Below the pieces are notes generated by a model, which saw nothing but the letters and a program-made list of their open reading frames with translations, had not been told where the DNA came from and made no database searches. Shown here piece after piece: positions 5,058-64,000 of a stretch of DNA of 64,000 nt. Made by a program: the position numbers and the translations under genes. The stretch is from Escherichia coli (lineage in GTDB: Bacteria; Pseudomonadota; Gammaproteobacteria; Enterobacterales; Enterobacteriaceae): the NCBI RefSeq assembly GCF_048403405.1, contig NZ_CP183131.1. One strand, given 5' to 3'. Position 1 is the first letter of the stretch; each line of letters starts with the position of its first letter.

Positions 5058-5203
5058 AAAAACAGTGTTGATTATTTTTTGTTCAGTGATCAAAAGGATA
5101 AATATAAAGATCTTTAGATCTTTGTATAAAGGATTAAAAACGGTTAAAGACAGGTTAGGCGTTCTAAATCACCACTCAACACATTGATATTACTGGTGTT
5201 TTC

Positions 5204-45287: not shown

Positions 45288-45560
45288 TTATTTATCTATA
45301 TGTTTTGAAATCTTATCTACAATGGATGTAGTATCCATATTCATTATCCTCCCTGCTTTTTCAATCAGAAACTCAGCTTCATTTGTTATGTTCTTTGACT
45401 CTTCATTAATAATGTCAATGATAGTTTCTAGTGCGATTCCATACTCACCCACATCAATAAATTCTTGCACTTCTATACTTTCAGATTCAGAAAACGAATC
45501 AGACAGCACCATAAGCAAAAGATCTAGCGTGGATTCAATTTCTCTATATTCATTTTTCAT
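45288..45560 (-). CDS. putative Rhs immunity protein
   Basis: 90-aa acidic protein whose ATG overlaps the rhs stop (ATGA). AT-rich like the rhs toxin tip. Assignment is positional. Confidence 0.6.
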   Translation of the reverse strand: MKNEYREIESTLDLLLMVLSDSFSESESIEVQEFIDVGEYGIALETIIDIINEESKNITNEAEFLIEKAGRIMNMDTTSIVDKISKHIDK

Positions 45561-49819: not shown

Positions 49820-49951
49820 TTACAGCTCCAGTTTTTATGCTGGAGCTATTTTCAGGTGGGAGAGTCGTTATCAACGACTGCGTTTTTGCCCTTTTAGGGT
49901 ATGAATACGTGATTTGGAGAGGTTGTGTATTCAGAACAAATGAGAAGCAGG

Positions 49952-50677
49952 TTACTCATTTCGCTCAAACACTGTGACAAGAACACGTTTTTGGTTGTCG
50001 TCGTTGATCACCATCAGGTACTTGAACTTGGAATCTCTATGGCCCCAGACTTCCACGTTATCTACGCGGCCATACTTTCTGGCTTTATGGCGAGCCACTT
50101 TCTCGTCAAAGGGTTGAACCTGTAACTCTGGATGCTGGAGGCGACCAACGAGTGAGGCCCACGGTTTTTTAGGGTCTCCAGAGGTTATCCGGGCCTGATA
50201 CTGATCGATGGCATGTTGAGTAACAAGGACGGGACCAATGGCCGGTGTAGAGATTTCGTCATGGGTTTGAGTATAGGCTTGCTTGTCCACATCGAGGAGC
50301 TCAACGTTGCCCTCACCCGGCTCATCCATAAACTCCATGCTCTGCGAAACTTCAATAGTAGCGCCCTTTAAACGTCCAGTGAGGCAAGCCGCAAACTTGA
50401 ATGCAAACTCCTTGGTGGATTTGCCCAGCGCCAGCTTTTTAATCGCACCTTTGGATACCACCAGCTTGTAACCAGCACCAGCACCTGGCTCTCTGCAAAA
50501 AACCTGTTTGTCCAGCGCCAGATAGCGAATGGCTACGAGCTCAGCCAAAAGATCTGCCTCCTCGTTGTCAAAATCAATACGAACATCAAGGATGCCTTTC
50601 CGTTTTGTACCAACGCGCCAGAATACAAGGGCTGAATTATTAGAAGTTTTCTTCGAGACAGTAGTCAGTGTCATCAT
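49952..50677 (-). CDS. hypothetical protein
   Basis: 241-aa ORF with GGAGAAATAGACC before the ATG. Promoter-like GGGGTTGCATTTTTAAAA core upstream (50763-50780). Confidence 0.5.
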   Translation of the reverse strand: MMTLTTVSKKTSNNSALVFWRVGTKRKGILDVRIDFDNEEADLLAELVAIRYLALDKQVFCREPGAGAGYKLVVSKGAIKKLALGKSTKEFAFKFAACLTGRLKGATIEVSQSMEFMDEPGEGNVELLDVDKQAYTQTHDEISTPAIGPVLVTQHAIDQYQARITSGDPKKPWASLVGRLQHPELQVQPFDEKVARHKARKYGRVDNVEVWGHRDSKFKYLMVINDDNQKRVLVTVFERNE

Positions 50678-50790
50678 GGTCTATTTCTCCATTATCGGGA
50701 TAATGGTCGGCATCGCCGCCAGCACCCCTATTCGTTAGGGTTCATTTAGATGCTACCACGGGTTTTAAAAATGCAACCCCTAGTGCCACT

Positions 50791-51192
50791 CTATTTGTGG
50801 TCCCAAGTATTTTTATAAGCTCGGGCTAGGCGTTTCTCTATCACTTCTGACAAATTGCAACCATCGACTTCTGCCAACCGCTTCAAAATCCTGTGGGCTT
50901 TATCGCTTATAGTTATGCTTTTACCAACACCATATCCCCTTCTGCGACGTTGCCTAATTGATGTCCCGAGTTTATTGATTTGCTCTGCTGTCAGATATTT
51001 ATTAATCCATTCAGTGAGTTCTGATGGTGATCGCCCCATGCTGTTCAGGCTGTCCACGGCTTCAAGTTTCTTATCGAATGGGACGTCACGCCAGAAAGCT
51101 GGGCGCGAAGCAGCTCTGAGGAGATAGATCGCCGTAGCCTGAGCATCTTCATTGGATACTTTCAAAAAAACACCTTTACCGTTACATGTCAC
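50791..51192 (-). CDS. putative ribbon-helix-helix/CopG-like DNA-binding protein
   Basis: 133 aa (GTG start, uncertain). C-terminal ITISDKAHRILKRLAEVDGCNLSEVIEKRLARAY resembles an RHH module. The start is embedded in a 12-bp perfect inverted repeat. Confidence 0.45.
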   Translation of the reverse strand: MTCNGKGVFLKVSNEDAQATAIYLLRAASRPAFWRDVPFDKKLEAVDSLNSMGRSPSELTEWINKYLTAEQINKLGTSIRQRRRRGYGVGKSITISDKAHRILKRLAEVDGCNLSEVIEKRLARAYKNTWDHK

Positions 51193-51216
51193 ACCAACTT
51201 CATCGTGACATGTAAC
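51181..51216. promoter_or_regulatory. 12-bp perfect inverted repeat over the start of the RHH-like gene
   Basis: GTTACATGTCAC (51181-51192), 12-nt spacer, GTGACATGTAAC (51205-51216). Candidate auto-operator. Confidence 0.5.
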
Positions 51217-51411
51217 ACTTCAAACTGCAAGTATAAAAAAAGGCCAGCTATTGCTGGCCTTTACGTTCATTATCGCAGTTACTCTTTAGGCGTTGTGATG
51301 CTTTTTTTCCTTCTGTTTCTCATGGTAGAGATACAGACTGCCGCCAGTGACGACAGTGAAAAAAATGAGCAACCCCAACATGCCTAATGTGAAAGCGTCC
51401 ATTTGACCCCC

Positions 51412-51651
51412 TTAGGAATTGCTGACCTTGGTTAAGATTATACCATAGATCCACAGGATAACCCCAATGACCAACACCAAACCGGCTTCTTTGACGGTTA
51501 TAGTGTCCCCAGATACAGCCAATCCTACAATACCGACACCGATGGCTGTTACGGCGACCTTACGCAGGTCTTCACCGATAGCTCCCAGAGTCTTCTTGTC
51601 AGGAGAGAAAAGACGCACAAACCACGTCTTAATACGCAAAAACTTTTTCAT
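51412..51651 (-). CDS. small membrane protein
   Basis: Start MKKFLRIKTW at 51651 after GGAGGTAATC. Two TM segments. Last gene of the long minus-strand block. Confidence 0.5.
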   Translation of the reverse strand: MKKFLRIKTWFVRLFSPDKKTLGAIGEDLRKVAVTAIGVGIVGLAVSGDTITVKEAGLVLVIGVILWIYGIILTKVSNS

Positions 51652-51723
51652 GATTACCTCCATAGTTGAAGAGGAGGCGAATCATGCCCGAGAGGGCATG
51701 AACACCCCCTCAGGGTTAAAGTT
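51652..51723 (-). promoter_or_regulatory. structured leader, instance 1 (TAACCC box + SD-sequestering stem)
   Basis: Minus strand: TAA-AACTT-TAACCCTGAGGGGG, CATGCCC-TCTC-GGGCATG hairpin, then CCTCC...GGAGG pairing the SD. Confidence 0.5.
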
Positions 51724-52002
51724 TTAGGCAGACAAAGCTGTTGGCTTCGCCTTGTTCATCTTCATTGAGTTAATGATCTTCGTCGCTTCATCAGCAAACG
51801 GGCCAGTAACTTGGATAGGCTCCCTTCTTGCGAAGGAGGCTGTCACCATCATTCTCTGGCCGTGCATCAGATGACGATACCGAGACCGCATAAGCTCAAC
51901 GTAGGCCGCAGAGTCCCCCTCCCACCCCTCAGGGGGAGAAAAGGGGCACACCGCGTCGTTACCAGGCGTTGTATCAACCTTCGAGACATCAATGACGGCC
52001 AT
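51724..52002 (-). CDS. hypothetical protein
   Basis: Start taken at MAVIDVSKVDT (52002), 14-nt overlap with the primase stop. 92 aa. Confidence 0.45.
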   Translation of the reverse strand: MAVIDVSKVDTTPGNDAVCPFSPPEGWEGDSAAYVELMRSRYRHLMHGQRMMVTASFARREPIQVTGPFADEATKIINSMKMNKAKPTALSA

Positions 52003-53716
52003 ACTCAGCTCTCCTTCTCGCAATGAAATCGCGCAGGTAGCGAGCATTCGGGAAACCGAGGCTTCCCTGACTCATCAGGACATCGTTCCAGTCAATCCCT
52101 TTCGCTCTGGGCGGGATCGGGAGTTTAGGCAGCAGGACGTACACACGAATGCCGCGCTTCTCCAGCTTGGCTTTCAGCACGTTCGCTGACTTCTCACCAG
52201 TCACAGACTTATCTTTGTCAGCCCAGATCAGTACGGTGTGAACACCTTCTGGAACCTCGAAGGACTCCATCAGGGTCGCATTGACCGTTGACCAAACCGG
52301 GATTTGAGTGACTCGATAAGCTGACAGGGCTGTTTCCAGCCCTTCTGCAACACCCAGGATACCCTCAGTCGGTTCACCGAGGCGGATGGCCGCGCCATTG
52401 ACATCCAAACCGTCAGGAATGGGCATCATCTTCTTGGCGTTGCCGACCTTGGCTTTTTTACCGTTTTGGGTGAGATAGGTGCGGTGGAGCGTTACCAGGT
52501 TGCCTTCCACATCTCGGATAGCGCAGACGATAGCCGGGAATTTCCCAACTTCATTGCCATCTTCGTCGTAGTAGGCCATAGCCGGATTGAACCGCAGACA
52601 GTCTGTTTTTTCTACTTCATCAACCTTGAACAGAAGCTCGCGGTTTTTGAAGTACAGACGCATTGGCTCAGTCACATGACTGGAGAACGGCAAACACTCG
52701 TTCCATACCTTCTCGATTTTCTCACGGAGACGAGCACTGTAAGCGCGTTCGCGCTCCATTCTCTTCTCCATTTCTTCTTGGAGCTCAAGCAGCCAAGGCT
52801 TAGGTTGTTCACGAAACATCGGAACAACTTTCGGCTTGTTTTCGCTGCTTTGCTCTTCCGGTTGTGTGGCCGCATGTTGTACTTGCGGTGCCGGAGCTTC
52901 TACCGTGCGGTTGACCACAGGGGCCGACTCAACATGGTGACTCACCGGCTCAACACCACCGTTCGAGCGAGCGCGGAACTGCGTTACCGTAGCGCCGCGA
53001 CGTTCCACCAGCCAGGTGTTGCGATGCGTTTGCATAGGTTGTTCTCTCACAACATTCCCCTGCTCGTCCTTAACTTCAACGACGACAGTTACAGGCTCGC
53101 GCCCGAGGTTTGTCATGACGATCTCATCCCCATACTTGGCTTCACTTTCACCAATGGCTCTTTCAAGATCCACGCCCCAGATGGTGCGTTCCAAACCGCT
53201 CTTGTCACGGATGAAGGCAAAGTAGCTGAGCTCGTTGTCTTCGTTATGCTCATAAGGAGCTTTACCGTGGGCAATCAGAGTACCGGCAATGGATTTTTTA
53301 CGATTCTTGGAATCGAGAACCTTGTTATTCACCTTCATAGGCTCTTGCTGAACAGGCGCTTTGGCCTGGACAGGAGCTCGTGTCGGTGCAGCGGCTTGTT
53401 GATACTGGGGTTGCTCTTTCTCAACGCCCAGATAATCACCAACCTCGCTCAGGCACTGTTTAAAGTCCCAGTTATTGAGCCACATCAGCAGCTCAAAACC
53501 ATCATGATTGGCACCGCATGTATTGCATACGCCGCCACCAGTCAGGTGGGCATCCTTGAACAGTCGGAAGCCATCTTTCCCGCCGTGGATAGGACAAGAA
53601 ACATGACGACCAGGTTTACGGAGAGCTGGTTCAAGATGGGGCGCTAGGGCCGCCAGGATGAATAGCCAGTTTCCGTTTGCAGCTTCACGAACGGTGTCAG
53701 CTTTGTAGTAAGACAT
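51989..53716 (-). CDS. pri: DNA primase (zinc-ribbon + Toprim)
   Basis: Start MSYYKAD at 53716 after AAGGAGAAAACCT. P4-type primase zinc ribbon HVSCPIHGGKDGFRLF...GGVCNTCG. C-terminal Toprim GVAEGLETALS...LIWADKDKS. Confidence 0.75.
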   Translation of the reverse strand: MSYYKADTVREAANGNWLFILAALAPHLEPALRKPGRHVSCPIHGGKDGFRLFKDAHLTGGGVCNTCGANHDGFELLMWLNNWDFKQCLSEVGDYLGVEKEQPQYQQAAAPTRAPVQAKAPVQQEPMKVNNKVLDSKNRKKSIAGTLIAHGKAPYEHNEDNELSYFAFIRDKSGLERTIWGVDLERAIGESEAKYGDEIVMTNLGREPVTVVVEVKDEQGNVVREQPMQTHRNTWLVERRGATVTQFRARSNGGVEPVSHHVESAPVVNRTVEAPAPQVQHAATQPEEQSSENKPKVVPMFREQPKPWLLELQEEMEKRMERERAYSARLREKIEKVWNECLPFSSHVTEPMRLYFKNRELLFKVDEVEKTDCLRFNPAMAYYDEDGNEVGKFPAIVCAIRDVEGNLVTLHRTYLTQNGKKAKVGNAKKMMPIPDGLDVNGAAIRLGEPTEGILGVAEGLETALSAYRVTQIPVWSTVNATLMESFEVPEGVHTVLIWADKDKSVTGEKSANVLKAKLEKRGIRVYVLLPKLPIPPRAKGIDWNDVLMSQGSLGFPNARYLRDFIARRRAEYGRH

Positions 53717-53893
53717 AGGTTTTCTCCTTAGCGTGAACCCCAGCATCGAGGCTTCCTTAAACCCCCGTCGCCAGGGTTTTAAGGAAACCCCGACACCGGG
53801 AGAATGTGCCAAGGAGGCTCCCCAGCCGGGGAGAACTCCCCGGCGAGGGGTTTAAAAAGGTCGCCCCCGAAACGGAGGCGAATTTTGTGAATA
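53717..53893 (-). promoter_or_regulatory. structured leader, instance 2 (double box, preceded by terminator-like hairpin)
   Basis: Minus strand: CGCCTCCG-TTT-CGGGGGCG + CCTTTTTAAA, then TTTAAACCCCTCGCCGGGG and TTAAAACCCTGGCGACGGGGG boxes. Confidence 0.45.
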
Positions 53894-54280
53894 TCACAAG
53901 CACAAATGAGTGCCATCTTCCGAGGCCATCATGATTGTGACATCTGCGGTTACAGGATCTGACTTAATCACAACCTCAGTGGGTTTGAAAAAGCCATCTA
54001 CAGTGGGCATGGGGTAATAAAGACGAATCTTTCCCCAATTCTTGTTGTCGGTAAAAGCGACCTTTGTTTGAGCAACACAAAGCTGCAAAAACATGAAAAG
54101 GAAGTCTTCTACCGAGTGCTTACCATCTGCACCAAATACTCCATCGACAATTGCCGGGGTCACTGCCACATTGGTCAGGAAACCAGCTTGTTTACCGATG
54201 GAAGATTGGTCCACCAGCAGACCATCATTGATGGCTTGTTGACGGATTTGGGCGAGGTCCAATTTAGCTACTTGGTTCAT
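53894..54280 (-). CDS. hypothetical protein
   Basis: 128-aa ORF preceded by structured leader instance 3. No motif recognised. Confidence 0.5.
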   Translation of the reverse strand: MNQVAKLDLAQIRQQAINDGLLVDQSSIGKQAGFLTNVAVTPAIVDGVFGADGKHSVEDFLFMFLQLCVAQTKVAFTDNKNWGKIRLYYPMPTVDGFFKPTEVVIKSDPVTADVTIMMASEDGTHLCL

Positions 54281-54386
54281 AAGGTGTACTCCAAAGTTAA
54301 TGGGTACACCTACCCCGTGCGGGGAAGTGTACCCGCATGGGTTATTGAAAGGTCACGGCCAAAGCCGAGCTTTAAGGTTCCGAGTT
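54281..54386 (-). promoter_or_regulatory. structured leader, instance 3
   Basis: ATAACCCATGCGGG. Alternative stems TGCGGG/CCCGCA, GGGTACAC/GTGTACCC, and GGTGTAC.../...GTACACC (covers the SD GGAG). Confidence 0.5.
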
Positions 54387-54533
54387 TTACGCTGGCTGAA
54401 TGCGCCAAAGAACGGTCGGAGGAAACGAGTCAGCGACACGCTTCACATTCGCGTAAAGAGTGTCCTTAAAGACACGCTCTAAGCGACGACCACCTTGACG
54501 ATAAACCAACTTAAAGTCTTGGAATTTGTTCAT
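54387..54533 (-). CDS. small basic hypothetical protein (48 aa, below ORF-track cutoff)
   Basis: Manual translation MNKFQDFKLVYRQGGRRLERVFKDTLYANVKRVADSFPPTVLWRIQPA*. The ATG is preceded by GGAGGTATCC and a full structured leader. Confidence 0.4.
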   Translation of the reverse strand: MNKFQDFKLVYRQGGRRLERVFKDTLYANVKRVADSFPPTVLWRIQPA

Positions 54534-54737
54534 GGATACCTCCAGAAATAACGGGAGGTATCTCCAGCAGGAGATAGACTCCCGCAGGGATTAATAAATT
54601 AACGTTAATTTGCTGTTTGTTTTTGGCGACCAGCTATCGCACGCTTTCGCCCTCAGGGAGGACAAAATCTGCTTACTGATGGCTTAACCATGAGTAAGAA
54701 GACTTGGGAAGTAAAGCAGGGGTTTCCCCCTGCCTTG
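54534..54737 (-). promoter_or_regulatory. structured leader, instance 4, plus promoter-like box and terminator-like hairpin
   Basis: Minus strand order: GCAGGGGGAAACCCCTGC-TTTACTT (54716-54733), GTGCGATAGCTGGTCGCCAAAAACAAACAGCAAATT (54607-54642), TTAATCCCTGCGGG, then GATACCTCC/GGAGGTATC SD stem. Confidence 0.5.
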
Positions 54738-55589
54738 TTATGCCGCTTTGAGGTGGCGAGAGAAAAAGTCCCTGGTTTGCTGGATAGCGCCCCGGAGAAG
54801 TTCTCGTCTGTAGCCAGCGTAGCTCTTGTCATCACTGGCAACGGTCAAGCCGTGCAGACTCTCTTCACCCAGGACAATCTCGTTTTCACGAGAGAGTACC
54901 TCAACACGTAGGCCAAGCACTCGCTCTTTCCCTTCCAGGATAGAACAAATTGTTTGGTCTCTTACTTCGTCATCCCAGTGGCCCATATCGAAATCCCGCT
55001 CAGGGAGTTCAGTAACACGCACCAGGTAGTTTTCAGTGGCCCGTTCCCAAACCACTTCATCTTCGCATGGAGAGGCCTCGATCAGCGAGTACCCGTCCGC
55101 TTCGAGCTTCTTGGAAAGACTTTTTACATCATCCGCCAGCTCCAGCACAAAGCGTTCCCAGAGGTCTTGCCAGCGCTCGACCATATCCTGGTTAATCCCT
55201 TCAATGCCGGTGCCAATCATGGAATCATCATCAGGGAAGATCCCTGTGAAGTCCACGTTGTCGTCGATGTTCATGCAGTTCCAATGGCTGTAGTGATGCC
55301 CGTGACTATTCCGAGTAATGGACAGGTCACAGGAACCATATTCGCGGAGGACAGAAAGCATATTCTCAATGTCTTTCTGTGCCATCAGGTTCTTCACGCG
55401 GCTGACAGCATCCACTTGGCCGGGCTCAGTGCTGAATAGGCGATTCATGAGAGCTTTGACGTCATCAACGCTCAAATCCCCGTAGAAGGCTACGCCATCC
55501 CCCTGGCAGTATCCGAGACTGTACTCAATCGTCAGATCATCCGGGTATCCACACTTAACCAGTTCGTTTTGAAAATGCTGTTTAATCAT
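54738..55589 (-). CDS. hypothetical acidic protein
   Basis: Start MIKQHFQNELVK at 55589 after AAGGAGATACCA. 283 aa. No motif recognised. Confidence 0.5.
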   Translation of the reverse strand: MIKQHFQNELVKCGYPDDLTIEYSLGYCQGDGVAFYGDLSVDDVKALMNRLFSTEPGQVDAVSRVKNLMAQKDIENMLSVLREYGSCDLSITRNSHGHHYSHWNCMNIDDNVDFTGIFPDDDSMIGTGIEGINQDMVERWQDLWERFVLELADDVKSLSKKLEADGYSLIEASPCEDEVVWERATENYLVRVTELPERDFDMGHWDDEVRDQTICSILEGKERVLGLRVEVLSRENEIVLGEESLHGLTVASDDKSYAGYRRELLRGAIQQTRDFFSRHLKAA

Positions 55590-55663
55590 TGGTATCTCCT
55601 TAATTTCAGAGGGAGACACCATCCCCTCAGGGACCGATGTCCCCCGTGGGGTTAATGTTTGGG
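55590..55663 (-). promoter_or_regulatory. structured leader, instance 5
   Basis: TTAACCCCACGGGGGACATCGGTCCCTGAGGGG hairpin. GGGGGACA/TGTCTCCC alternative. GGTGTCTCC/GGAGATACC SD stem. Confidence 0.5.
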
Positions 55664-56221
55664 TTAAGAAGCCTTGCGGTTTAATTCAGTATCAAATCGA
55701 GGACCTTTGAGAACCGCAGTTTTCATAACCTCGAAGTTTCTTGGGTAACGCAGCTTTGAAACTGCGCCAGCTCGGATGTCGGCAGCCTCACTTGGAGAGA
55801 CTAGCCTTAACCCTTCGCTGGTTTCAGCGTAGAACCAACCGGCATAACGCTCATAGGCATTCTGCTGGTACTGTTCAGTCGCCATATTCTTCCGGATCGC
55901 CTCTGTTAAGGCCTCAACAACACCGTCATCTTTCGTGATGATGTTGAAAACATGAGAGACGGTCAGGAAGTTCCCAAAGAAGCAGGCTGCCCCAAGCCAA
56001 GGCTGGAACATTTCGCCATTTCGCCCCGTCCTCACCATTGGTTCAAACGGGTATGGGCGATAACAGTGATACTGCTCAAACATCGGGTCAAGAACGTTGT
56101 CACCCAGGACATCCAGTAAAGTCTGAATGCTGTCCGGGTCTTGGCCTGCCCACTTACTCCCATTGCTGAGAATCAGTGTTTTACCGTCAGTACGCTCCAG
56201 AGCTTGTTCAAAGTTAGACAT
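55664..56221 (-). CDS. hypothetical protein
   Basis: Start MSNFEQALERTDGK at 56221 after AAGGAATGCACT. The longer track ORF reads through the leader. 185 aa. Confidence 0.5.
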   Translation of the reverse strand: MSNFEQALERTDGKTLILSNGSKWAGQDPDSIQTLLDVLGDNVLDPMFEQYHCYRPYPFEPMVRTGRNGEMFQPWLGAACFFGNFLTVSHVFNIITKDDGVVEALTEAIRKNMATEQYQQNAYERYAGWFYAETSEGLRLVSPSEAADIRAGAVSKLRYPRNFEVMKTAVLKGPRFDTELNRKAS

Positions 56222-56294
56222 AGTGCATTCCTTTTGGTTAGGACGCACCACACCCTCTCGGGATGATGCGCCCGAGTGGGTTAGTTGAGAAGGC
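56222..56294 (-). promoter_or_regulatory. structured leader, instance 6
   Basis: CTAACCCAC-TCGGG-CGCATCAT-CCCGA-GAGGG hairpin. GGGCGCA/TGCGTCC alternative. GTGCGTCCT/AGGAATGCAC SD stem. Confidence 0.5.
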
Positions 56295-56513
56295 TTAGCC
56301 GTCAAGTCCGTAAATTACGGCGGAGCCGGGCTCCATCTCGACAACTTGTGCGCTTCCTTCTTCTATCAGCTCCTGCATGTAACCAGACTCAGCATCCGGA
56401 TTACGTTCGCAGTGTTCGTCCCAGCGTTTCAAAAGCCCTTCTGTGGCTTGTCCGTGGGTCTCACCAAGGCCGATAAACTCATAGTGTCCTGTGTTTACGA
56501 TGATCACCACCAT
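56295..56513 (-). CDS. small hypothetical protein
   Basis: Start MVVIIVNTGHYEF at 56513 after AGGAGAGCACTAGCT, downstream of the stop at 56527. 72 aa. Confidence 0.45.
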   Translation of the reverse strand: MVVIIVNTGHYEFIGLGETHGQATEGLLKRWDEHCERNPDAESGYMQELIEEGSAQVVEMEPGSAVIYGLDG

Positions 56514-56526
56514 AGCTAGTGCTCTC

Positions 56527-56796
56527 CTACAGGTCACTTGGTACATACAGGTCATCTTTGATGGCAGAAAAATCGACAGGAGACTGGTCCCCATAGGTTC
56601 GATTCACGCCACCAGCATCATCGACACTGACAAAAACCGTGCGGAGTAAACCGCTGGGCTTTGCAGGGTAAACGATGCTGACATGCTGACCTTTGTACTG
56701 TTCTGACAAAGTGCTTTGAAGCTCATCAACCGAACGGAATTTCCGGTCGCGGCCAAAGTCCTTAATCTTGATGTCGCCAGGGATTGGATTAGTCAT
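56527..56796 (-). CDS. hypothetical protein
   Basis: 89-aa ORF overlapping the HD-domain gene stop by 8 nt. Confidence 0.5.
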   Translation of the reverse strand: MTNPIPGDIKIKDFGRDRKFRSVDELQSTLSEQYKGQHVSIVYPAKPSGLLRTVFVSVDDAGGVNRTYGDQSPVDFSAIKDDLYVPSDL

Positions 56797-57394
56797 CGTT
56801 ACCCCCTGCCAGCAGTTTATCTACTGAATGGCCGAGTCCGTTACCAAACCATTTGTCCAGAGCGTCGATTTCCGGGAAGTCCGATTTCACCTGAGCAACA
56901 ACACGTTCCATTTTGCTGAGAGCATCCTGGAACTCAAGGCCATTACCTGCGGCCACCTCAAGTTTGCACTTGATGTAAGCGGAGTAGGTATCACAGGCCT
57001 TAACCAGTGATTGTTCATAGCCACCGGGAGCGAAGGCTATGGCGACTGCATCCTGGAGTTCTTCGGGAAGAGTCTGGATGAGTTTGTCCTCTGCGGCCTT
57101 TTCCAGTCGTTCAAACTCACGCTGCAAAACAGCGTTTGCTTTCTTGACCGGTGTTACAACATCCGAACAGAGAACCTCGGCTGCATCATGCAACGAAGCA
57201 TGAGCAAGCATGACTGCCAGATCCACCGACTTCCCTTGCTGAATGGCAATATTGCCAGCCAGGTAGGAAAGCAGGGTAACAACAGCGCTGTGTTCCAACA
57301 CAGACTCCGGTTGAACAGAGTGCATCAGTGACCAGCGTTTGATCAGGCGTTGGCGCAAGGCCAGAGCTAGAAAGCCGAAATTTGAATTAGACAT
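56789..57394 (-). CDS. HD-domain phosphohydrolase (YfbR-like 5'-nucleotidase family)
   Basis: 201 aa. H...HD...E/D pattern: VLEHSAVVTLL, MLAHASLHDAAEVLCSDVVTPVKK. Confidence 0.7.
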   Translation of the reverse strand: MSNSNFGFLALALRQRLIKRWSLMHSVQPESVLEHSAVVTLLSYLAGNIAIQQGKSVDLAVMLAHASLHDAAEVLCSDVVTPVKKANAVLQREFERLEKAAEDKLIQTLPEELQDAVAIAFAPGGYEQSLVKACDTYSAYIKCKLEVAAGNGLEFQDALSKMERVVAQVKSDFPEIDALDKWFGNGLGHSVDKLLAGGNDD

Positions 57395-57465
57395 AGTGCC
57401 TCCAAAATTGGTTGGAGGTACACCAAAGCCGACCGGGCCTTGGTGTACCCGGTTGGGTTACTTAG
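57395..57465 (-). promoter_or_regulatory. structured leader, instance 7
   Basis: GTAACCCAACCGGG. ACCGGG/CCCGGT, GGTACACCAA/TTGGTGTACC and CCTCCAA/TTGGAGG (SD) stems. Confidence 0.5.
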
Positions 57466-57669
57466 TTATCTCGGGTCAAGCTGCTTAGCTATAGCGAGTA
57501 AAAACGGATGGAATGGATGATCTTGCGGGACACCCCCAACAAGCTCACGGGCTAAACCGACTGAGTTTGTAGCCAACACCTCTTTGACGGCCAGAATGAT
57601 TTCATTGTCGATTTCATCCTGGGTCTTTCGTTGTTGGTCCACCAGCCGACTTAACTTGTCTAGGCTCAT
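57466..57669 (-). CDS. small hypothetical protein
   Basis: 67-aa ORF preceded by a leader with the perfect 8-bp SD stem TTCTCTCC/GGAGAGAA. Confidence 0.5.
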   Translation of the reverse strand: MSLDKLSRLVDQQRKTQDEIDNEIILAVKEVLATNSVGLARELVGGVPQDHPFHPFLLAIAKQLDPR

Positions 57670-57840
57670 GCTTCTCTCCTTTGTTTGTGGGAGAGAACCC
57701 AGGAGGGGTTTCCTCCCGAGGGGTTAGGTTATTGCTGTTTTGGGCCAGCTACCGTTATAGCCAGCAAGCGCTGACAATGAACAAAGAGTATGACAGCCAC
57801 CTAAAAGGGTAAAACGCTGTAATTGCCCTTTTGGGGTGCA
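57670..57840 (-). promoter_or_regulatory. structured leader, instance 8, plus promoter-like box
   Basis: After the terminator at 57841-57870: CGGTAGCTGGCCCAAAACAGCAAT (57731-57754), CTAACCCCTCGGGAGGAAACCCCTCC, then the SD stem. Confidence 0.5.
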
Positions 57841-57870
57841 AAAGAAAAAGCCCTCCCGAAGGAGGGCTTT
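57841..57870 (-). terminator. rho-independent terminator after the DndC-like gene
   Basis: Minus strand: TAA-AAAAGCCCTCC-TTCG-GGAGGGCTTTTTCTTTT. Confidence 0.8.
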
Positions 57871-60324
57871 TTATGCGGCCAAGGACAAGCCTTGCTGTCC
57901 TCTTTGCAACTCTGTGTCGTCGCGGCGATGTAAGCGTTGAACCGCCTTGATCATCGTTCTGACATGTCGCTCCAAAGAGGCTGGATGGCGTTTTGACAGT
58001 AGGTTGATCCAGTCGAGATAGATAGCAAGCGCGGAACCTTCGGTTAGGGCTGCCTGTATCGCCTCATACTGCCCTACGGCACTCTGGACCACATCATTCA
58101 CCCACTGGGCGTCAGTATTGTCCAAGAGCTCGCAGAGGGCCGTATAAGCCTTCCTTCTGGTCGCGGCCATGTAACGACGAATGTTGGCGTTTCCGCTCCC
58201 CTCTCGCCCTTCCATGACGCTCATACAGAATGCGCTGGAGTAACAAAGCATCGCGTCAGTCACGTAGTTAAACCATCGCTCCTGATGCCGTTTCTGTTCT
58301 TCCATTGCTTCCTGGTCAAGTTGCTTCTCGATGAACAACCCCGTCGGAGTACGGTGGTGCAGATGGTACTTGAACGTTAAGTGCAAGTTGACCCACCAGC
58401 GTACCGTTGCCAGTCTTCCCTTGATTTTTCGCTTCACCAGATCTTTGTACTTAGCATCGCTAAGCACTTTGACATCCTTGCGCTGTTGGATTCCTTCCAT
58501 CGTCTGTAGCCCTGTAAGGCCCATCTGGTGGTAGGTTTGACCTCTTTGCATCATACGGTGATACAAAGCGCCTTTTCCTTTCGCAAGCTGGATTGCTCCG
58601 AACCGAAGGTAGAACTGCGCTGCACTACCGGGCGTATAATGTCCCTTTAGTACAGACTCCCTTAGTCGCGGGTATTCGTTCCAGATGATGAACGCAGCGG
58701 AGTCGGGATCGACTTTCACTTCATCATCTTCTGCGAAGCAAACCACCCTTCTCTTTCCGTCTGCGGTATTGATCACTTGCGCTGCCAACGGGTCATCCCC
58801 GCCGTCAAAGTAAGCCATTTCCGCTAACGGATCGGCCAAGCCATCAGAAAGCGAACCATCGCCCCAGCGACCAACCTTCAACCACAATGGCTTCGGAATT
58901 GGTGACTGAGGAACGGTTTCACACTGCGGCTCGTCTTCCAGCAAGTCCAGATCACCCATCGACCAAACCCTGTGGTAAATCTCCAGGGCATGGAAAGGCT
59001 TATCATTGAAATGATGGAAGGCCCACATGAAGTCGATATGGACTAAAGCCTCTTCCGATATGATCCGGAATTGTGGCTCTGCCATTCGACGGTTCCAGTC
59101 GTTATCCTCTGCTTGACCAGTAGCCAGCTTGTATGCCAGCTCATCAGCTCTCTTTTGCTCCATGTAGTCCATGCTGCAACAGACATGAAGCAATCGTTCT
59201 AGGAAAACAGGACTGTAAACGTCCGGCTGTATTTTGATGTATCCGCCCTCGTAAATCGTTCGACCTACGGGATGGCGGTCTTCCCATGCGTACCGGCGTT
59301 TTGCCAAGTAGCGCTGGATGCGGTTCAGCCCCGACATATAGCCATGCCTTTCAGGGTCCGTGGCAAGCAACGTCTCCATTGACTTATCCAACCCAACAGC
59401 CTGGCAAGCCCAGCAACCGAAGCGAGCGCCACAGGCGTCACTGGCCTTCTTCTCTGTTGCCGACCACACGCACTCCCCTGTTGCCGCCTTGTAAAGCTCT
59501 GCCGTAGTGACATTGCTCTCCAAGTAACTTGGCAGAGGATATGCTGAGCCCATGCCAGCGGATAGTAAGAACTCCCAGACATCACTCGCCAACCAGTTTT
59601 TCACCACATACAGCTCACCCCCATCTTTCGTCTTAATGACGCGATCTGAGCTTCCTCGCTGTTTTGCAATGTTGGCCGCACGAATAGTGCTTTCAGCATC
59701 ACGACTGCCCAGCAAAAGGCAGACTTTCTGTCGAACCTCTTTGGGAAGCTCTCGCATATAAGCTGCCTTCGCTCTTTTGGCAGAGGTGATTTTTAAATCC
59801 TGGCTACACTGGCGGGCCGTGGAGTTGGAAAACGTAGGCAACCCCCTCCCAGTAAGGATTCGGCCCGTCCAACTCTGCGAGATCCCAGGCTTTGCTAGAA
59901 CGATGGTCAGAGGAAGGTTTTCCTTCGCAATGAAACGCTCCAGCTCGGCCAGTTTCTGATCCGCCAGCCACCTTACCTCTGGGCTTTCGATCAGTGTGTC
60001 AGTGTGCAAGATGAAGTGGTGCTGGCTGATGGTCGCCCCACTCCTTACAGCCCGGATCAGGGCCATCAGGAACAGGTGCAAGACCGTTTCAGAATCTTTA
60101 CCACTGGAATAGCCGATCATCATGGTCCACCCATCAATTAAGGCCGTGTGAATGGACTCAACCGATGACGTGATCAACGATGACAGACTGGTTCCTCTAC
60201 TGGCATCAACGAAGTTCAAATCCTCGTTATCAGTCAGTTCTGACCAAACAGAATCCCACTTATCCCCACGCAAAAGCACTGGGATGGGTTGTTCTGATAG
60301 ATCAAAGTTTAATGTTTGTTGCAT
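57871..60324 (-). CDS. large DndC-like PP-loop/PAPS-reductase-family protein
   Basis: 817 aa. PP-loop GYSSGKDSE near residue 70. Cys motif CGARFGCWACQAVGLDKSMETLL as remembered for DndC-type sulfurtransferases. The about 450-aa C-terminal extension has no recognised domain. Confidence 0.65.
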   Translation of the reverse strand: MQQTLNFDLSEQPIPVLLRGDKWDSVWSELTDNEDLNFVDASRGTSLSSLITSSVESIHTALIDGWTMMIGYSSGKDSETVLHLFLMALIRAVRSGATISQHHFILHTDTLIESPEVRWLADQKLAELERFIAKENLPLTIVLAKPGISQSWTGRILTGRGLPTFSNSTARQCSQDLKITSAKRAKAAYMRELPKEVRQKVCLLLGSRDAESTIRAANIAKQRGSSDRVIKTKDGGELYVVKNWLASDVWEFLLSAGMGSAYPLPSYLESNVTTAELYKAATGECVWSATEKKASDACGARFGCWACQAVGLDKSMETLLATDPERHGYMSGLNRIQRYLAKRRYAWEDRHPVGRTIYEGGYIKIQPDVYSPVFLERLLHVCCSMDYMEQKRADELAYKLATGQAEDNDWNRRMAEPQFRIISEEALVHIDFMWAFHHFNDKPFHALEIYHRVWSMGDLDLLEDEPQCETVPQSPIPKPLWLKVGRWGDGSLSDGLADPLAEMAYFDGGDDPLAAQVINTADGKRRVVCFAEDDEVKVDPDSAAFIIWNEYPRLRESVLKGHYTPGSAAQFYLRFGAIQLAKGKGALYHRMMQRGQTYHQMGLTGLQTMEGIQQRKDVKVLSDAKYKDLVKRKIKGRLATVRWWVNLHLTFKYHLHHRTPTGLFIEKQLDQEAMEEQKRHQERWFNYVTDAMLCYSSAFCMSVMEGREGSGNANIRRYMAATRRKAYTALCELLDNTDAQWVNDVVQSAVGQYEAIQAALTEGSALAIYLDWINLLSKRHPASLERHVRTMIKAVQRLHRRDDTELQRGQQGLSLAA

Positions 60325-60411
60325 AGGGCCTCCTGGATTAGCAGGGTGCCCATCCCTTCCGGGAAAGCACCCCGGTAGGGTTAAAATTGAATCCTGGCTA
60401 TCAGACCTGAA
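60325..60411 (-). promoter_or_regulatory. structured leader, instance 9 (cut from its upstream gene by the IS3-family element)
   Basis: TTAACCCTACCGGGGTGCTTTCCCGGAAGGG hairpin. GGGTGC/GCACCC alternative. GGGCACCCTG/CAGGAGGCCC SD stem. Confidence 0.5.
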
Positions 60412-61640
60412 TGAATCGCCACGGGTTTAACAGACACCTCAGAGTCATTTAAGATGGCTTAAAGAGAGGTGCCCATGAGCGGTAAGCGTTATCCCGAAGA
60501 GTTTAAAATTGAAGCAGTCAAACAGGTTGTTGATCGCGGTTATTCTGTTGCCAGCGTTGCAACACGTCTCGATATCACCACCCACAGCCTTTACGCCTGG
60601 ATAAAGAAGTACGGTCCGGATTCTTCCACTAATAAAGAACAGTCAGATGCTCAGGCCGAGATCCGCCGTCTCCAGAAAGAGCTGAAGCGGGTTACCGACG
60701 AACGGGACATATTAAAAAAAGCCGCGGCGTACTTCGCAAAGCTGTCCGACTGAGGTACGCCTTTATCCGTGACAACACCTGTTGCTGGCCTGTTCGCCTG
60801 CTCTGTCGGGTGCTGGATGTTCATCCCAGTGGTTTTTACGCCTGGCTTCAGCAGCCGCATTCACAACGCCATCAGGCAGACCTAAGACTGACAGGACAGA
60901 TTAAACAGTTCTGGCTGGAATCGGGATGCATCTATGGTTATCGCAAAATCCATCTGGATCTGCGGGACAGCGGGCAACAGTGCGGAGTGAACAGAGTCTG
61001 GCGACTGATGAAACGTGTCGGGATAAAGGCTCAGGTTGGATACCGGAGCCCGCGAGCACGTAAAGGCGAAGCCAGTATCGTGTCGCCCAACAGGCTCCAG
61101 CGACAGTTCAATCCGGATGCTCCGGATGAGCGTTGGGTAACGGACATAACCTACATCAGGACCCACGAAGGCTGGCTGTATCTTGCCGTGGTTGTTGATC
61201 TGTTCTCACGCAAAATTATCGGCTGGTCCATGCAATCCCGGATGACAAAGGACATTGTCCTGAACGCACTGCTGATGGCTGTATGGCGGCGTAATCCCCA
61301 AAAACAGGTGCTGGTTCATTCGGATCAGGGCAGTCAATACACAAGCCATGAGTGGCAGTCGTTCCTGAAATCACACGGCCTGGAGGGCAGCATGAGCCGT
61401 CGCGGTAACTGCCATGATAATGCGGTTGCAGAAAGCTTTTTCCAGTTGTTGAAACGCGAACGGATAAAGAAAAAGCTCTACGGAACGCGGGAAGAAGCCC
61501 GCAGCGATATTTTTGATTACATCGAAATGTTTTATAACAGTAAGCGTCGGCATGGTTCTAGCGATCAGATGTCACCGACAGAATATGAAAACCAGTATTA
61601 TCAACGGCTCGGAAGTGTCTAGATTATCCGTGGCGATTCA
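60412..61640 (+). mobile_element. IS3-family insertion sequence, 1229 bp
   Basis: IRs TGAATCGCCACGG... at both ends. orfA 60475..60753 (HTH). A7G slippery site at 60714-60721. orfB in the -1 frame to 61622 (DDE: WVTDITY, HSDQGSQY). 3-bp target duplication GAA (60409-60411, 61641-61643). Confidence 0.85.
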
Positions 61641-61643
61641 GAA

Positions 61644-62030
61644 CTAGCTGCTACTCGACATCTGGTTGTCTTCGTATTGCTGCTTGGCCTGTTTCACCAG
61701 ATCAATGTCACCGTCTTGCAGCTTTTGAATATCAAGCTGTAGACGAGCCTTGTGTTTCAACAGTTCAGCGACCGCATTATCAATGTGATCAATGAGCGAT
61801 TGGTTTTTTTGGATGGTGTAACTGTTGAGTTCATCGAGCAGGGGCCATGCAACACTCGAATGAGTGTTGAGCAATGGGTACTCTGCTTCGATCTCACAAA
61901 CCACACCGTTTGCTCCTTCTCTGTAATGAGGGAACCCGACACGCAGACCGATACGACGATCCAGCGCTGCATTTACAGTACATTCCAAAGAAGTTCGGTT
62001 TGAAAAAACATCGTTGACGTTTTTAGACAT
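61644..62030 (-). CDS. hypothetical protein
   Basis: 128-aa ORF with a C-terminal coiled-coil-like segment. Preceded by leader instance 10. Confidence 0.5.
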   Translation of the reverse strand: MSKNVNDVFSNRTSLECTVNAALDRRIGLRVGFPHYREGANGVVCEIEAEYPLLNTHSSVAWPLLDELNSYTIQKNQSLIDHIDNAVAELLKHKARLQLDIQKLQDGDIDLVKQAKQQYEDNQMSSSS

Positions 62031-62262
62031 GCTATATCTCCGTTCAGTTTATGACGGAGCCCCCCTAACAGGAGGTGCTCCCGTCAGGGTTGATAATTTG
62101 CTGTTTGTTTTTGGCAGCCAGCTACCGCACTTGAGCGCCTAAGGCACTTTCCGAAGCACCCTGGGAAACCGAGATGCTTGGGAAAGCGCGGGGTTTCCCC
62201 CTGCGCTGATTACCCTTTTTAAGGGGCCGGTACGCCGATTTCTCGGCGCACTCAGGTTGAAG
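62031..62262 (-). promoter_or_regulatory. structured leader, instance 10, plus promoter-like box and terminator-like hairpins
   Basis: GCGCAGGGGGAAACCCCGCGC-TTTCCC (62186-62206), GTGCGGTAGCTGGCTGCCAAAAACAAACAGCAAATT (62095-62130), TCAACCCTGACGGG, then CTCCGT/ACGGAG SD stem. Confidence 0.5.
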
Positions 62263-62817
62263 CTACACAGTCAAGAACCAACGTTTCATAGGGACGGTGA
62301 TGTCTATCATCCCGTTTCCACATGGATTCTGGCCCCAGAATCTGTAGGTCGTCTCATAGAAGTCAAACTCAGACAAGGACTGAATCTGCGCTTCTGAGAT
62401 CGGCTCAAATGGTCCACCGCAACCGATGTGCATATTGAGCCCATAATCTCGAAGCTCTAGCTCTCCGAGATTTAGCGTCTTCCCGCCCACACAAGCAACC
62501 AAGTTCTGGTTTCTGACGTCGCCTTCTTTGAACAGCAAAGCTGACTCATCGTAGCTCCCATATTGGTTGGTAAACTTCACAATATGCCCGTGCTTAGGTG
62601 AGGTTTGTTCCGACAACTCTTTCAGTAATCGCTTTACGCTTTGAAATCTCGCGTACAGAGCTGGCGTAAACTGCCCAGAGTAGTTCAAGTTTGGGCAGAT
62701 CATTTCAAGCATCTCATCAGGTACAGATTCAAGCCCCATTTGCGCGGCCAATGGCTTCGCCTTTTTCAGACCTTCCTCAAGCACTCTCTGATTTACAAGT
62801 TGTTCTAATGTGTTCAT
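62263..62817 (-). CDS. hypothetical protein
   Basis: Start MNTLEQLVNQ at 62817 after GGAGAGTCAA. 184 aa. Confidence 0.5.
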   Translation of the reverse strand: MNTLEQLVNQRVLEEGLKKAKPLAAQMGLESVPDEMLEMICPNLNYSGQFTPALYARFQSVKRLLKELSEQTSPKHGHIVKFTNQYGSYDESALLFKEGDVRNQNLVACVGGKTLNLGELELRDYGLNMHIGCGGPFEPISEAQIQSLSEFDFYETTYRFWGQNPCGNGMIDITVPMKRWFLTV

Positions 62818-62890
62818 TTGACTCTCCACTTTCGAGAGAGCAATGCAAGCCGTCTCCGGACTTACATTGCCCGTTAACGGCTTTATTGGT
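62818..62890 (-). promoter_or_regulatory. structured leader, degenerate instance 11
   Basis: GTTAACGGGCAATGTAAGTCCGGAGACGGCTTGCATTGC hairpins. CTCTC/GAGAG pairing over the SD. The box is degenerate. Confidence 0.35.
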
Positions 62891-63322
62891 TTATCCCAAG
62901 AGGTACGGAGCTACGCCAGTCAGGAAGCCCATGACTCCCAACACAGCGCCAACCACGCCCAATTTGATTGACAGTTGGACACTTTGATCCGGATGGTTCC
63001 AGAACCACTGCCAGACTTCCCAGCGCCTGGCTCTGCGAACCTCAAGATTTACAGTGTCTTTAAAACGAACACCCAGAGCATCTACCGCATCGTAATCCAG
63101 CGCGACCGCCAGCTTTGTGATGGATAAATTCCCAGGGTTGCCCATCGCATACCGGAGAACCTTTGCTTTGGTCTCTGGGTTTACGATCATAACCGGCTCC
63201 CTCCTGAAAAAACGGGTCTTGTCTTTTCGCTTGGAATCCATGTTGCGGTTATGGAACCTGGCAATGCAGTGTTGAAGGCCTGAATCCTCGGGAGGTAAAG
63301 GCACAACAGTTTCGATTTTCAT
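62891..63322 (-). CDS. hypothetical protein with C-terminal TM helix
   Basis: Start MKIETVVPLPPED at 63322 after AAGGAGAGTAATC. C-terminal LGVVGAVLGVMGFLTGVAPYLL. Confidence 0.5.
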   Translation of the reverse strand: MKIETVVPLPPEDSGLQHCIARFHNRNMDSKRKDKTRFFRREPVMIVNPETKAKVLRYAMGNPGNLSITKLAVALDYDAVDALGVRFKDTVNLEVRRARRWEVWQWFWNHPDQSVQLSIKLGVVGAVLGVMGFLTGVAPYLLG

Positions 63323-63382
63323 GATTACTCTCCTTTCGGATAGGCCGGAGCAAAGGCCTTTCGGCATTGCCCCGGTGAGTTA
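63323..63382 (-). promoter_or_regulatory. structured leader, degenerate instance 12
   Basis: GTAACTCACCGGGGCAATGCCGAAAGGCCTTTGCTCCGG. CTCC...GGAG pairing over the SD. Confidence 0.35.
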
Positions 63383-64000
63383 CTAATGAACCAAAGATGA
63401 AGTGACCATGATTGCGTCTCCGGACATCATTACCGGGAGATATTCGCAAGGCTCATGGCCGCAGCTCTTTTTAGTTCCGTTAGGTGAATAGACAGCCAAT
63501 TGACCATCCATAATGTTGAAGGGCATCCCCTGTTTTTTCGCTGCCGGTGACAGCTTGAGAGTGCCCTTTGCGTCAACCAATGCCGTTGCCCAATGGAAGT
63601 CTTCACCACCGATCACCGGCTGTGATTCATCCACGACTTCGACCATGATTGGCATCATTCCAACCCAGCTCCACAGGCTGTTCCCTAATGCGAGGGCTAA
63701 AGCCTCGAACGCGGGAAAGACTACCGATTGCCCGAGAATCTGGTGGGCAATAGTGTCCGACAGACCTTGGATGAGTTCCTCTGGTATCCCTTTCACTCGA
63801 CAATGTTCTGTCGGTGTAAAGATGCGAGACAACTCCGGCTGTTCTGGATGAACAATGAAAGGTTCGGTACTTCTGCATTTTGCATAGTCCTTACCTATGG
63901 TGCCGCAAAACTCATCGTCGCCAGTCAGAAGCTGGCGAGAGAACCCCTTGCCAGCAGCTTTGTCTCTCAACTCCTTCTCAGCCAGATAGTCAAATGACTT
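63383..64000 (-). CDS. DNA (cytosine-5)-methyltransferase-like protein, partial (5' end beyond window)
   Basis: Reading frame open to the window edge. C-terminal MTase-like motifs RIFTPTEHCRVKGIPEELI (motif IX-like) and HQILGQSVVFPAFEAL (motif X-like, GQSV instead of GNAV), followed by an extra domain of about 100 aa. Confidence 0.5.
   Translation of the reverse strand, partial: KSFDYLAEKELRDKAAGKGFSRQLLTGDDEFCGTIGKDYAKCRSTEPFIVHPEQPELSRIFTPTEHCRVKGIPEELIQGLSDTIAHQILGQSVVFPAFEALALALGNSLWSWVGMMPIMVEVVDESQPVIGGEDFHWATALVDAKGTLKLSPAAKKQGMPFNIMDGQLAVYSPNGTKKSCGHEPCEYLPVMMSGDAIMVTSSLVH

Follow-up and report, generated by a model that had tools for sequence, protein, structure and literature searches.

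In this study, we have analysed by computation a block of co-oriented genes located at positions 51412-64000 (minus strand) of a 64,000-nucleotide stretch of Escherichia coli DNA (contig NZ_CP183131.1 of assembly GCF_048403405.1), called here the window. Our results show that the block belongs to the conserved backbone of IncC plasmids, of which it forms the segment vcrx109-vcrx124, an element already known and whose transcriptional control has been published, and that its most striking feature is a previously undescribed, repeated family of attenuator-like leaders preceding its genes. One of these genes, vcrx113, codes for an 817-aa protein that, judged from its sequence, appears to represent a new, distinct and widespread plasmid-borne solo branch of DndC-like enzymes. 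On balance, we favour the view that the block is a mosaic of establishment and counter-defence genes acting independently, and not one biosynthetic pathway.

At least 24 copies of an intergenic leader of ~60-75 nt, all of one design, are found from vcrx093 to vcrx124, at 51652-63382 (minus strand) of the window and at 12241-35909 of L001, an identical plasmid used as the source of sequence past the window end. Each leader is laid out as an A-rich stretch (often with UAACCC), a GC-rich hairpin 1 and a hairpin 2 that pairs the Shine-Dalgarno (SD) sequence and, in about a third of the copies, the AUG too. The evidence comes from folding of each sequence, from shuffled controls and from tests of cognate against non-cognate pairs. 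The minimum free energies calculated for 24 leaders lie between -24.6 and -38.8 kcal/mol (mean z -4.1 relative to dinucleotide shuffles), and in the folding ensemble the SD is paired in nearly all of them. Among the 102 sites of the whole window that have an SD and a start codon, 15 come after a leader that folds strongly and pairs the SD. Of the 15, 14 are located in the block, on the minus strand, at 51651-63322, which confirms the uniform structured leaders described in the initial annotation of this DNA. Within the block (all on the minus strand), structured leaders precede vcrx110 (63323-63382), vcrx111 (62818-62883), vcrx112 (62031-62096), vcrx114 (57670-57735), vcrx120 (54534-54599), vcrx113 (60325-60390, intact and 21 nt from the end of an insertion sequence, IS), vcrx115 (57395-57460), vcrx118 (56222-56287), vcrx119 (55590-55655), vcrx121 (54281-54346) and vcrx124 (51652-51717). 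A search of Rfam (E <= 1) returned no such leader family, only sub-threshold terminator-like matches, and RNAalifold predicted no structure for 26 leaders aligned with MAFFT, owing to the misalignment of stems that differ in length. One structure sequestering a ribosome-binding site before vcrx089 has been mentioned (Roy 2020), and our targeted literature search found no description of a repeated leader family.

The leaders contain a third element, since within a leader the anti-SD strand of hairpin 2 finds a complement in the top of hairpin 1. Duplexes between cognate partners have a mean of -10.6 kcal/mol versus -5.7 kcal/mol for the non-cognate ones (0 of 20000 permutations, p < 5e-5), in 14 leaders the cognate partner is the best or second best of the 24, and the strength of the third element correlates with the stability of hairpin 2, the SD hairpin (Spearman rho 0.72, p 2.5e-4). 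The same three-part logic, written in other sequences, is present in an Aeromonas plasmid (L009), in a metagenomic relative (L012) and in a MOBH plasmid of Burkholderia gladioli (L007), and in these three relatives the cognate duplexes are again stronger than the non-cognate ones (-7.8 versus -4.2, p < 5e-5). The design is absent from IncHI2 and from four other plasmids that carry vcrx113 homologues. The Enterobacter hormaechei plasmid pEh6_1 (L004) has a different repeated leader motif, ACGGACACCCGCCG-N-CGGGA-GGA, before many genes around its vcrx113 homologue (at 5120, 6971, 10493, 11115, 13688 and 15432). At the level of computation, the IncC leaders thus combine the two properties of an attenuation-type element, an SD sequestered in a hairpin and a mutually exclusive upstream partner for the anti-SD strand.

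From these computed structures and complementarities we propose that translation in the block is gated by the leaders with relay coupling, a mechanism to which we give an even chance. Each gene would be gated at translation by its ~65-nt leader, in which hairpin 2 pairs the SD, and often the AUG, and the top of hairpin 1 can pair with the anti-SD strand instead; translational attenuators are arranged in this way, with 1:2/3:4 pairing as the alternative to 2:3. Since hairpin 1 starts 0-13 nt past the upstream stop codon and its top pairs with the anti-SD strand, a ribosome terminating on gene n may open hairpin 1 and so free the SD of gene n+1, in an ermC-like logic used as relay coupling. Two points weigh against this relay. 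The leaders of operon-first genes (vcrx114 and vcrx112) lack the third element yet still have their SD paired, and a terminating ribosome unwinds ~6-10 nt past the stop codon, so at gaps of 12-13 nt it would come no further than the base of hairpin 1.

Alternatively, the leaders could be elements of RNA processing or stability, in which 5' hairpins guard the cistrons after RNase E cleavage at the A-rich AACCC, or DNA hairpins on the transferred single strand, for instance priming sites. This would fit with the single-stranded AACCC found ahead of a GC-rich hairpin in most copies, with the location of all copies on one strand and with the plasmid primase encoded in the block. However, hairpin 2 always holds the SD, with the AUG in about a third of cases, at a fixed distance to the start codon, and the third complementarity is stronger where the SD hairpin is more stable, which neither a stability nor a priming role predicts; we consider these alternatives unlikely. 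If translational gating is confirmed, the leader family would be a compact and reusable RNA device for the ordered and limited translation of transfer-induced genes.

What is the element that carries these leaders? The IncC plasmid backbone is 100% identical to the window at 51412-64000 (minus strand), and gene lengths, gene order and the protein accession WP_000201432.1 (dcm1) identify the block as genes vcrx109-vcrx124 of pVCR94. An annotated twin plasmid, pIMP69_000369, is typed IncC (IncA/C2), MOBH and MPF_F, and 3571 records of PLSDB match 51412-64000, 642 of them covering at least 80% of the query. The items listed in the initial annotation were all found where it had placed them, on the minus strand. 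The co-oriented block that it described stands as regards the strand, which is minus for all genes, but is broken by an IS3-family element at 60412-61640, and its limits hold for the content of 51412-64000 but not for the array of same-strand genes, which runs far past the window end, upstream via dcm3 and the ssb-bet-exo genes of the hde operon. On the downstream side of the array there is a Rhs toxin gene. IncC plasmids have a very broad host range and play a major part in the carriage of resistance genes, those for carbapenemases among them; the block is kept in hundreds of sequenced plasmids, and a function is known for few of its genes.

Transcription of the block responds to AcaCD, the master activator of conjugation. 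The block is part of the AcaCD regulon and is induced together with the transfer genes (Carraro 2014), and nearly all of its genes show near-zero RNA-seq expression in a ΔacaCD mutant (Carraro 2014, Dataset S1). An AcaCD site located by chromatin immunoprecipitation followed by treatment with an exonuclease (ChIP-exo) and a transcription start site (TSS) have been reported upstream of vcrx114 (Carraro 2014, Table S3). With coordinates mapped from that table, the AcaCD-binding box of the vcrx114 promoter, TTTTGCACCCCAAAAGGGCAATTACAGCG, is present at the mapped position, 57815-57843, and the TSS falls near 57779; an intrinsic terminator after vcrx113, AAAGCCCTCCTTCGGGAGGGCTTTTT, was read in the sequence at 57845-57870, where Rfam gives a weak ctRNA/terminator-like match (all on the minus strand). 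Further AcaCD binding is known upstream of vcrx087, vcrx098 and vcrx128 (Carraro 2014). The block therefore has both the box and the AcaCD-dependent expression of a regulon member. Published Rockhopper operons, together with the terminators read in the sequence, divide the genes into about five transcription units (vcrx107-111, 112-113, 114-119, 120-121 and 122-125), and sigma-70-like promoters are depleted in 50600-64000 (2 versus 9.5 +/- 3.3 expected), the two found being both within the IS. The coordinated expression suggested in the initial annotation is thus borne out, because of AcaCD control; its attribution to the uniform leaders is not, since AcaCD accounts for the coordination and the leaders would act on translation and not as a shared transcriptional signal.

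Other intergenic sequences were seen in the region. An AcaCD box, ATTCATACCCTAAAAGGGCAAAAACGCAG, at 49878-49906 (minus strand), the site published for vcrx128, immediately precedes the gene (45557-49819) that codes for the 1420-aa Rhs toxin, and a looser look-alike, CCCCTTAAAAAGGGTAATCAGCGCAG, is found at ~62201-62226, upstream of vcrx112. An intergenic segment is repeated at 54606-54642 and 62094-62130 (92% identity over 37 nt; minus strand GTGCG(A/G)TAGCTGG..GCCAAAAACAAACAGCAAATTA) as is, in a second pair, the sequence at 54719-54758 and 62190-62229, and a related stretch is present near 57726-57750. The repeat sits just upstream of the leaders of vcrx120 and vcrx112, and more loosely of that of vcrx114, and has no reported AcaCD ChIP peak, though the genes downstream are AcaCD-dependent. 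A sigma-54 reading of the repeated intergenic motif CTGG..CCAAAA..GCAA was rejected by eye because the spacing does not fit.

The product of vcrx113 (57871-60324, minus strand) was characterised with hidden Markov models (HMMs), motifs and an AlphaFold2 model. Its top HMM matches are DndC models (PADLOC, 1.4e-41; TIGR03183, 1.3e-34, residues 66-441), and all the catalytic signatures of DndC are kept, namely SSGKDS73-78, RQC173S, GEC285, RFGC304WAC307 and DKS, in agreement with the PP-loop (SSGKDS) and the RFGCWACQ...DKSM motif initially annotated. In 28 homologues, the most distant at ~27% identity, SGKDS is invariant and C173, C285, C298, C304 and C307 are at least 90% conserved. The model has a predicted local distance difference test score (pLDDT) of 86, and its PP-loop domain matches structures of the PAPS-reductase fold and Fe-S thiolases (TtuA, NcsA). 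For the C-terminal half, about 350 residues beyond DndC, we found no known fold; residues 440-817 have only 79 representatives among 1.84 billion proteins, and in full-length matches they are always behind a PP-loop domain.

Homologues of vcrx113 are present in 2644 plasmid records, mostly conjugative, and the six typed contexts are mostly MOBH. Their identity is 59% in Providencia and Citrobacter plasmids, 47% in IncHI2, 44-47% in PRTRC elements of Vibrio and Photobacterium, 30% in Burkholderia and 23% in Pseudomonas megaplasmids; no close phage homologue was found, the best reaching ~30% identity over the PP-loop only. The family is solo in every context inspected, with no dnd neighbours in 9 other contexts, and its neighbourhoods contain orphan methyltransferases, a DGQHR (DndB-like) protein, JAB and many small open reading frames (ORFs). 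In the Enterobacter plasmid L004, the DGQHR gene is two genes upstream of the vcrx113 homologue, and in the metagenomic contig L012 (13884-18885) a complete dndBCDE cluster is found 5 kb away from a homologue with 62% identity, the two being on opposite strands and having an IS21-type element between them. The window has a second PP-loop/PAPS_reduct ORF of 371 aa (SGGKDS, TRWCSS; PF01507 3.2e-08) at 3490-4605 (plus strand), far from the block; the twin record lists other genes around these positions, and the window may differ from the twin there. A literature search for IncC together with DndC or PAPS reductase found nothing, and no publication on the function of vcrx113 was found: the main texts of the papers covered do not name it, and its sole listing is in a table of expression values (Carraro 2014, Dataset S1). 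This agrees with the statement of the initial annotation that no role is known for a DndC-like protein outside a dnd operon.

What could vcrx113 do? We suggest that the protein is active as a PP-loop ATP pyrophosphatase and has a cysteine (Fe-S) site of the DndC type; it would adenylate a nucleic-acid substrate and then transfer sulfur onto it. Nucleic-acid sulfur chemistry is suggested because the nearest family is DndC, and a role in establishment or counter-defence because of the genomic company of the gene and its transfer-coupled expression. The most likely target would be DNA, which may receive a phosphorothioate-like 'self' mark, or the enzyme may counter Dnd/Ssp/BREX-4-type systems of new hosts in another way, and the family-specific C-terminal half may stand in for the missing DndD/DndE. 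This mechanism, with DNA modification specifically, is put forward tentatively. Genes for PAPS reductases are repeatedly present in operons associated with anti-CRISPRs, where they are suspected of an anti-defence role. A Vibrio phage fusion of a PAPS domain with Dam has anti-Dnd activity, its mechanism being unknown (Piel et al.; bioRxiv 10.1101/2021.05.05.442762).

Several observations weigh against a DNA-modifying vcrx113. The protein scores 119.8 bits on TIGR03183 and does not reach the family cut-off of 290.4, whereas a genuine DndC from a dndBCDE cluster scores 619.3 bits and is 26% identical to vcrx113 over ~260 aa only. Searches by tblastn (E <= 1) for DndB, DndD and DndE found no match in the window or in L001 (adjacent 36 kb), as the initial annotation had held in reporting no dnd partners, and no P-loop NTPase partner for vcrx113 was found in the block. 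Every characterised phosphorothioation (PT) system needs both a PAPS-domain enzyme and a P-loop NTPase (DndD/SspC/BrxC), and gut isolates with solo PAPS genes had no PT (PMC12914056). In addition, the IS3-family insertion sequence (60412-61640, plus strand; 1229 bp, with 38-nt imperfect terminal inverted repeats and a 3-bp GAA target duplication, where pVCR94 has only 87 nt) is inserted 3 nt after the vcrx112 stop codon and splits vcrx113 from its upstream gene and promoter. The junction of this IS at vcrx112 was found in only 68 PLSDB records; because the gene is cut off from its promoter in these 68 plasmids, vcrx113 would be dispensable at least in the IS-carrying lineages.

The incomplete PT synthesis pathway left by the missing NTPase partner, the phage PAPS-domain protein with anti-Dnd activity and the relative located 5 kb from a full dndBCDE cluster would also fit with a vcrx113 that leaves the plasmid unmodified and acts as a decoy or competitor against PT-based or other defences of the host, for example by titrating IscS/DndA persulfide, DndD/E or PT-sensing nucleases. 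That the catalytic residues are so strongly conserved speaks for an active enzyme and not for a decoy: the PP-loop is invariant, and the cysteines nearly so, even at 27% identity, as expected of catalysis more than of mere binding, and we regard the decoy as distinctly unlikely. We give slightly less credit still to a vcrx113 whose substrate is RNA or a small molecule (in tRNA thiolation, as with TtcA/TtuA/NcsA, or in sulfur/cofactor metabolism), with the block as host-adaptation cargo unrelated to defence. Its structural neighbours do include tRNA thiolases and FAD synthase/PAPS reductases, the window has another PAPS_reduct ORF at 3490-4605, and published transposon insertion sequencing (TnSeq) gave no defence-related phenotype. 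However, DndC models are by far the best in sequence (1e-41 versus 0.0035 for CysD), the DndC-specific RFGCWxC...DKS motif is kept, and the family, carried mainly by conjugative elements, is expressed together with transfer.

In its boldest form, our proposal would be that the vcrx113 family is a self-sufficient, one-polypeptide DNA sulfur-modification enzyme, with its C-terminal half replacing DndD/DndE, which provides a 'modification-only' counter-defence to conjugative plasmids and is expressed via the undescribed relay of attenuator-like leaders; taken as a whole, we hold this to be very doubtful. If a solo DndC-like enzyme does act in counter-defence or DNA marking, it would help to explain the host range of these plasmids, and it would constitute a new single-protein branch of phosphorothioate-type chemistry, present in >2600 plasmids.

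The first gene of the block, dcm1 (vcrx109), codes for a 541-aa orphan C5 DNA methyltransferase (PF00145; WP_000201432.1, the dcm1 of Wang 2019), of which the window holds the C-terminal 205 aa (63383-64000, minus strand), the gene continuing past the window end. The full protein, taken from L001, scores 101.3 bits on PF00145 (cut-off 22) over residues 127-441 and 94.4 bits on TIGR00675, just under the cut-off of 100.65. The catalytic motifs PCT206 (motif IV) and ENV251 (motif VI) are present, FHGGG130-134 replaces FxGxG in motif I, and GQSV426 replaces the canonical GNxVP of motif X. Both the variant motif X and the extra C-terminal domain (~100 aa) of the initial annotation are confirmed, and there is an N-terminal extension of ~125 aa as well. 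We suggest that dcm1 would methylate cytosines so that plasmid DNA escapes restriction. Experimentally, dcm1 is tied to methylome changes, at the plasmid level, and to transfer: joint deletion of dcm1-3 abolished pVC211 transfer, and for dcm1 alone only more plasmid loss during mutant construction was seen (Wang 2019).

Two other genes code for predicted enzymes. The YfbR-type HD 5'-deoxynucleotidase vcrx115 (56789-57394, minus strand) scores 128.5 bits on NF003009 against a cut-off of 122, which supports the YfbR-like HD phosphohydrolase of the initial annotation at the level of the equivalog; it also matches PF12917 (8e-38) and E. coli YfbR (PDB 2PAQ, 1.6e-26), with which its metal-binding residues EHS, HDAAE and a later Asp align. 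It would dephosphorylate deoxynucleoside monophosphates (dNMPs). The 575-aa primase-like protein vcrx122 (pri; 51989-53716, minus strand) has the predicted architecture Zn_Ribbon_Prim (PF08273, 51 bits), DUF7146 (PF23639, 73 bits) and Toprim_3 (PF13362, 65 bits) and matches the DNA primase family phrog_510 (2.1e-57), consistent with the zinc-ribbon/Toprim primase previously assigned; no solved structural relative was found for it by sequence. This protein may prime complementary-strand synthesis.

Could there be a single DNA (hyper)modification pathway, the toolkit of the initial annotation, in which the PP-loop enzyme works together with the HD phosphohydrolase and the methyltransferase? The three genes are co-oriented, close and co-induced by AcaCD, and vcrx115 also matches a phage 'dATP triphosphohydrolase' PHROG (5.2e-17); in some phages, dATP triphosphohydrolases accompany base replacement. 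However, the genes belong to different transcription units with terminators between them, and vcrx115, being above the YfbR equivalog cut-off, is predicted to be an ordinary dNMP nucleotidase. Moreover, a relative in Aeromonas veronii, with a vcrx113 81% identical, lacks the HD gene, whereas dcm1, the primase and the DndC-like gene are all retained. Homologues of vcrx113 in other plasmid families have no conserved neighbour, those of IncHI2, Providencia, Photobacterium, Burkholderia and Pseudomonas having neither an HD nor a Dcm one. Hypermodification would also be unlikely because the plasmid shares the deoxynucleoside triphosphate pool of the host, and a change at the level of the pool would alter the host chromosome too. 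The single toolkit is not supported by these observations, and we judge the common pathway highly improbable.

An early anti-restriction role, also put forward in the initial annotation, stands in part. In its favour, the block is expressed with transfer through AcaCD, dcm1 is linked to the methylome and to transfer, and the adjoining upstream hde operon (vcrx087-094) has proven anti-restriction and CRISPR-evasion functions and acts in recipients (Roy 2020). Against it, TnSeq into V. cholerae O395 flagged only five hde genes, and according to the authors none of the dcm genes is essential for escaping restriction (Roy 2020). Nor does the block adjoin oriT, which lies near vcrx001, at least ~27 kb away in pVCR94 coordinates; leading regions being defined as the first ORFs past oriT on the transferred strand, with ssDNA promoters (Samuel et al. 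2024), leading-region status is unproven because of this distance. No HMM or fold match to known anti-defence families (the PADLOC set, ArdA/Ocr-like DNA mimics) was found in the block.

The remaining genes of the block, all on the minus strand, are twelve small or medium ORFs with no Pfam, NCBIfam or PADLOC match, in line with the roughly ten domain-less small proteins first noted. They comprise vcrx110 (62891-63322; 143 aa, basic), vcrx111 (62263-62817; 184 aa), whose deletion was without effect on exclusion (PMC11493245), vcrx112 (61644-62030; 128 aa), the first gene of the vcrx112-113 unit, and vcrx114 (57466-57669; 67 aa). They continue with vcrx116 (56527-56796; 89 aa), which overlaps vcrx115 by 8 nt, vcrx117 (56295-56513; 72 aa, very acidic, net -11) and vcrx118 (55664-56221; 185 aa), whose database name 'pyruvate dehydrogenase' is unsupported. 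The acidic vcrx119 ('NgrC' in NCBI; 54738-55589; 283 aa, pI 4.6, net -26) matches only a PHROG of unknown function and has a confident structure model with no solved structural relative. Finally, there are vcrx120 (54387-54533; 48 aa), vcrx121 (53894-54280; 128 aa), vcrx123 (51724-52002; 92 aa), which overlaps pri by 14 nt, and the small hydrophobic vcrx124 (51412-51651; 79 aa). A 124-aa basic protein encoded next to the block on its downstream side (50791-51165, minus strand), behind a hairpin that is long and perfect, matches the MatP N-terminal domain (PF06303, 5.5e-07).

How do these genes compare with known systems? With its Zn-ribbon and Toprim domains, vcrx122 resembles plasmid primases of the Sog/TraC kind, and differs from them by DUF7146; vcrx115 resembles E. 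coli YfbR in passing the equivalog cut-off and in aligning to PDB 2PAQ, its role on the plasmid being predicted only. The block and the IncC hde operon are both AcaCD-driven, on the same strand of the same plasmid, and would both act on entry into a new host, but a phenotype has been published for hde and none for vcrx110-124. The orphan methyltransferases of plasmid leading regions offer a precedent for an orphan enzyme in anti-restriction. Compared with DndC (DndABCDE, TIGR03183), vcrx113 shares the PP-loop SGxKDS, RxC[ST], GxC and RFGCWxC...DKS motifs and the PAPS-reductase fold, but it is far under the cut-off, lacks DndB/DndD/DndE, has ~350 extra C-terminal residues, and is plasmid-borne and solo in the contexts inspected. 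SspD/BrxP, from Ssp and BREX type 4, are likewise ATP pyrophosphatases with a PAPS-reductase domain, used there for DNA sulfur modification, but always with an adjacent P-loop NTPase (SspC/BrxC), of which the IncC block has none. The Vibrio phage PAPS-domain/Dam fusion is, like vcrx113, a DndC-related PAPS domain on a mobile element, without the rest of Dnd and next to or fused to methylases; it differs in having 479 aa and in being fused to Dam, and it serves in counter-defence, a use that is only putative for vcrx113. For the leaders, the comparison systems are ermC/cat translational attenuation, the repZ pseudoknot activator of IncI-alpha/IncB and MS2 coat-replicase coupling, with which they share an SD in a hairpin, an upstream element pairing with the anti-SD strand and a proposed release by a ribosome on the upstream frame. 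Unlike these systems, the IncC leaders have no dedicated leader peptide, so that the upstream gene itself would be the sensor, and their motif, which is not in Rfam, occurs in 24 or more copies on a single plasmid and is common to its Aeromonas, metagenomic and Burkholderia relatives.

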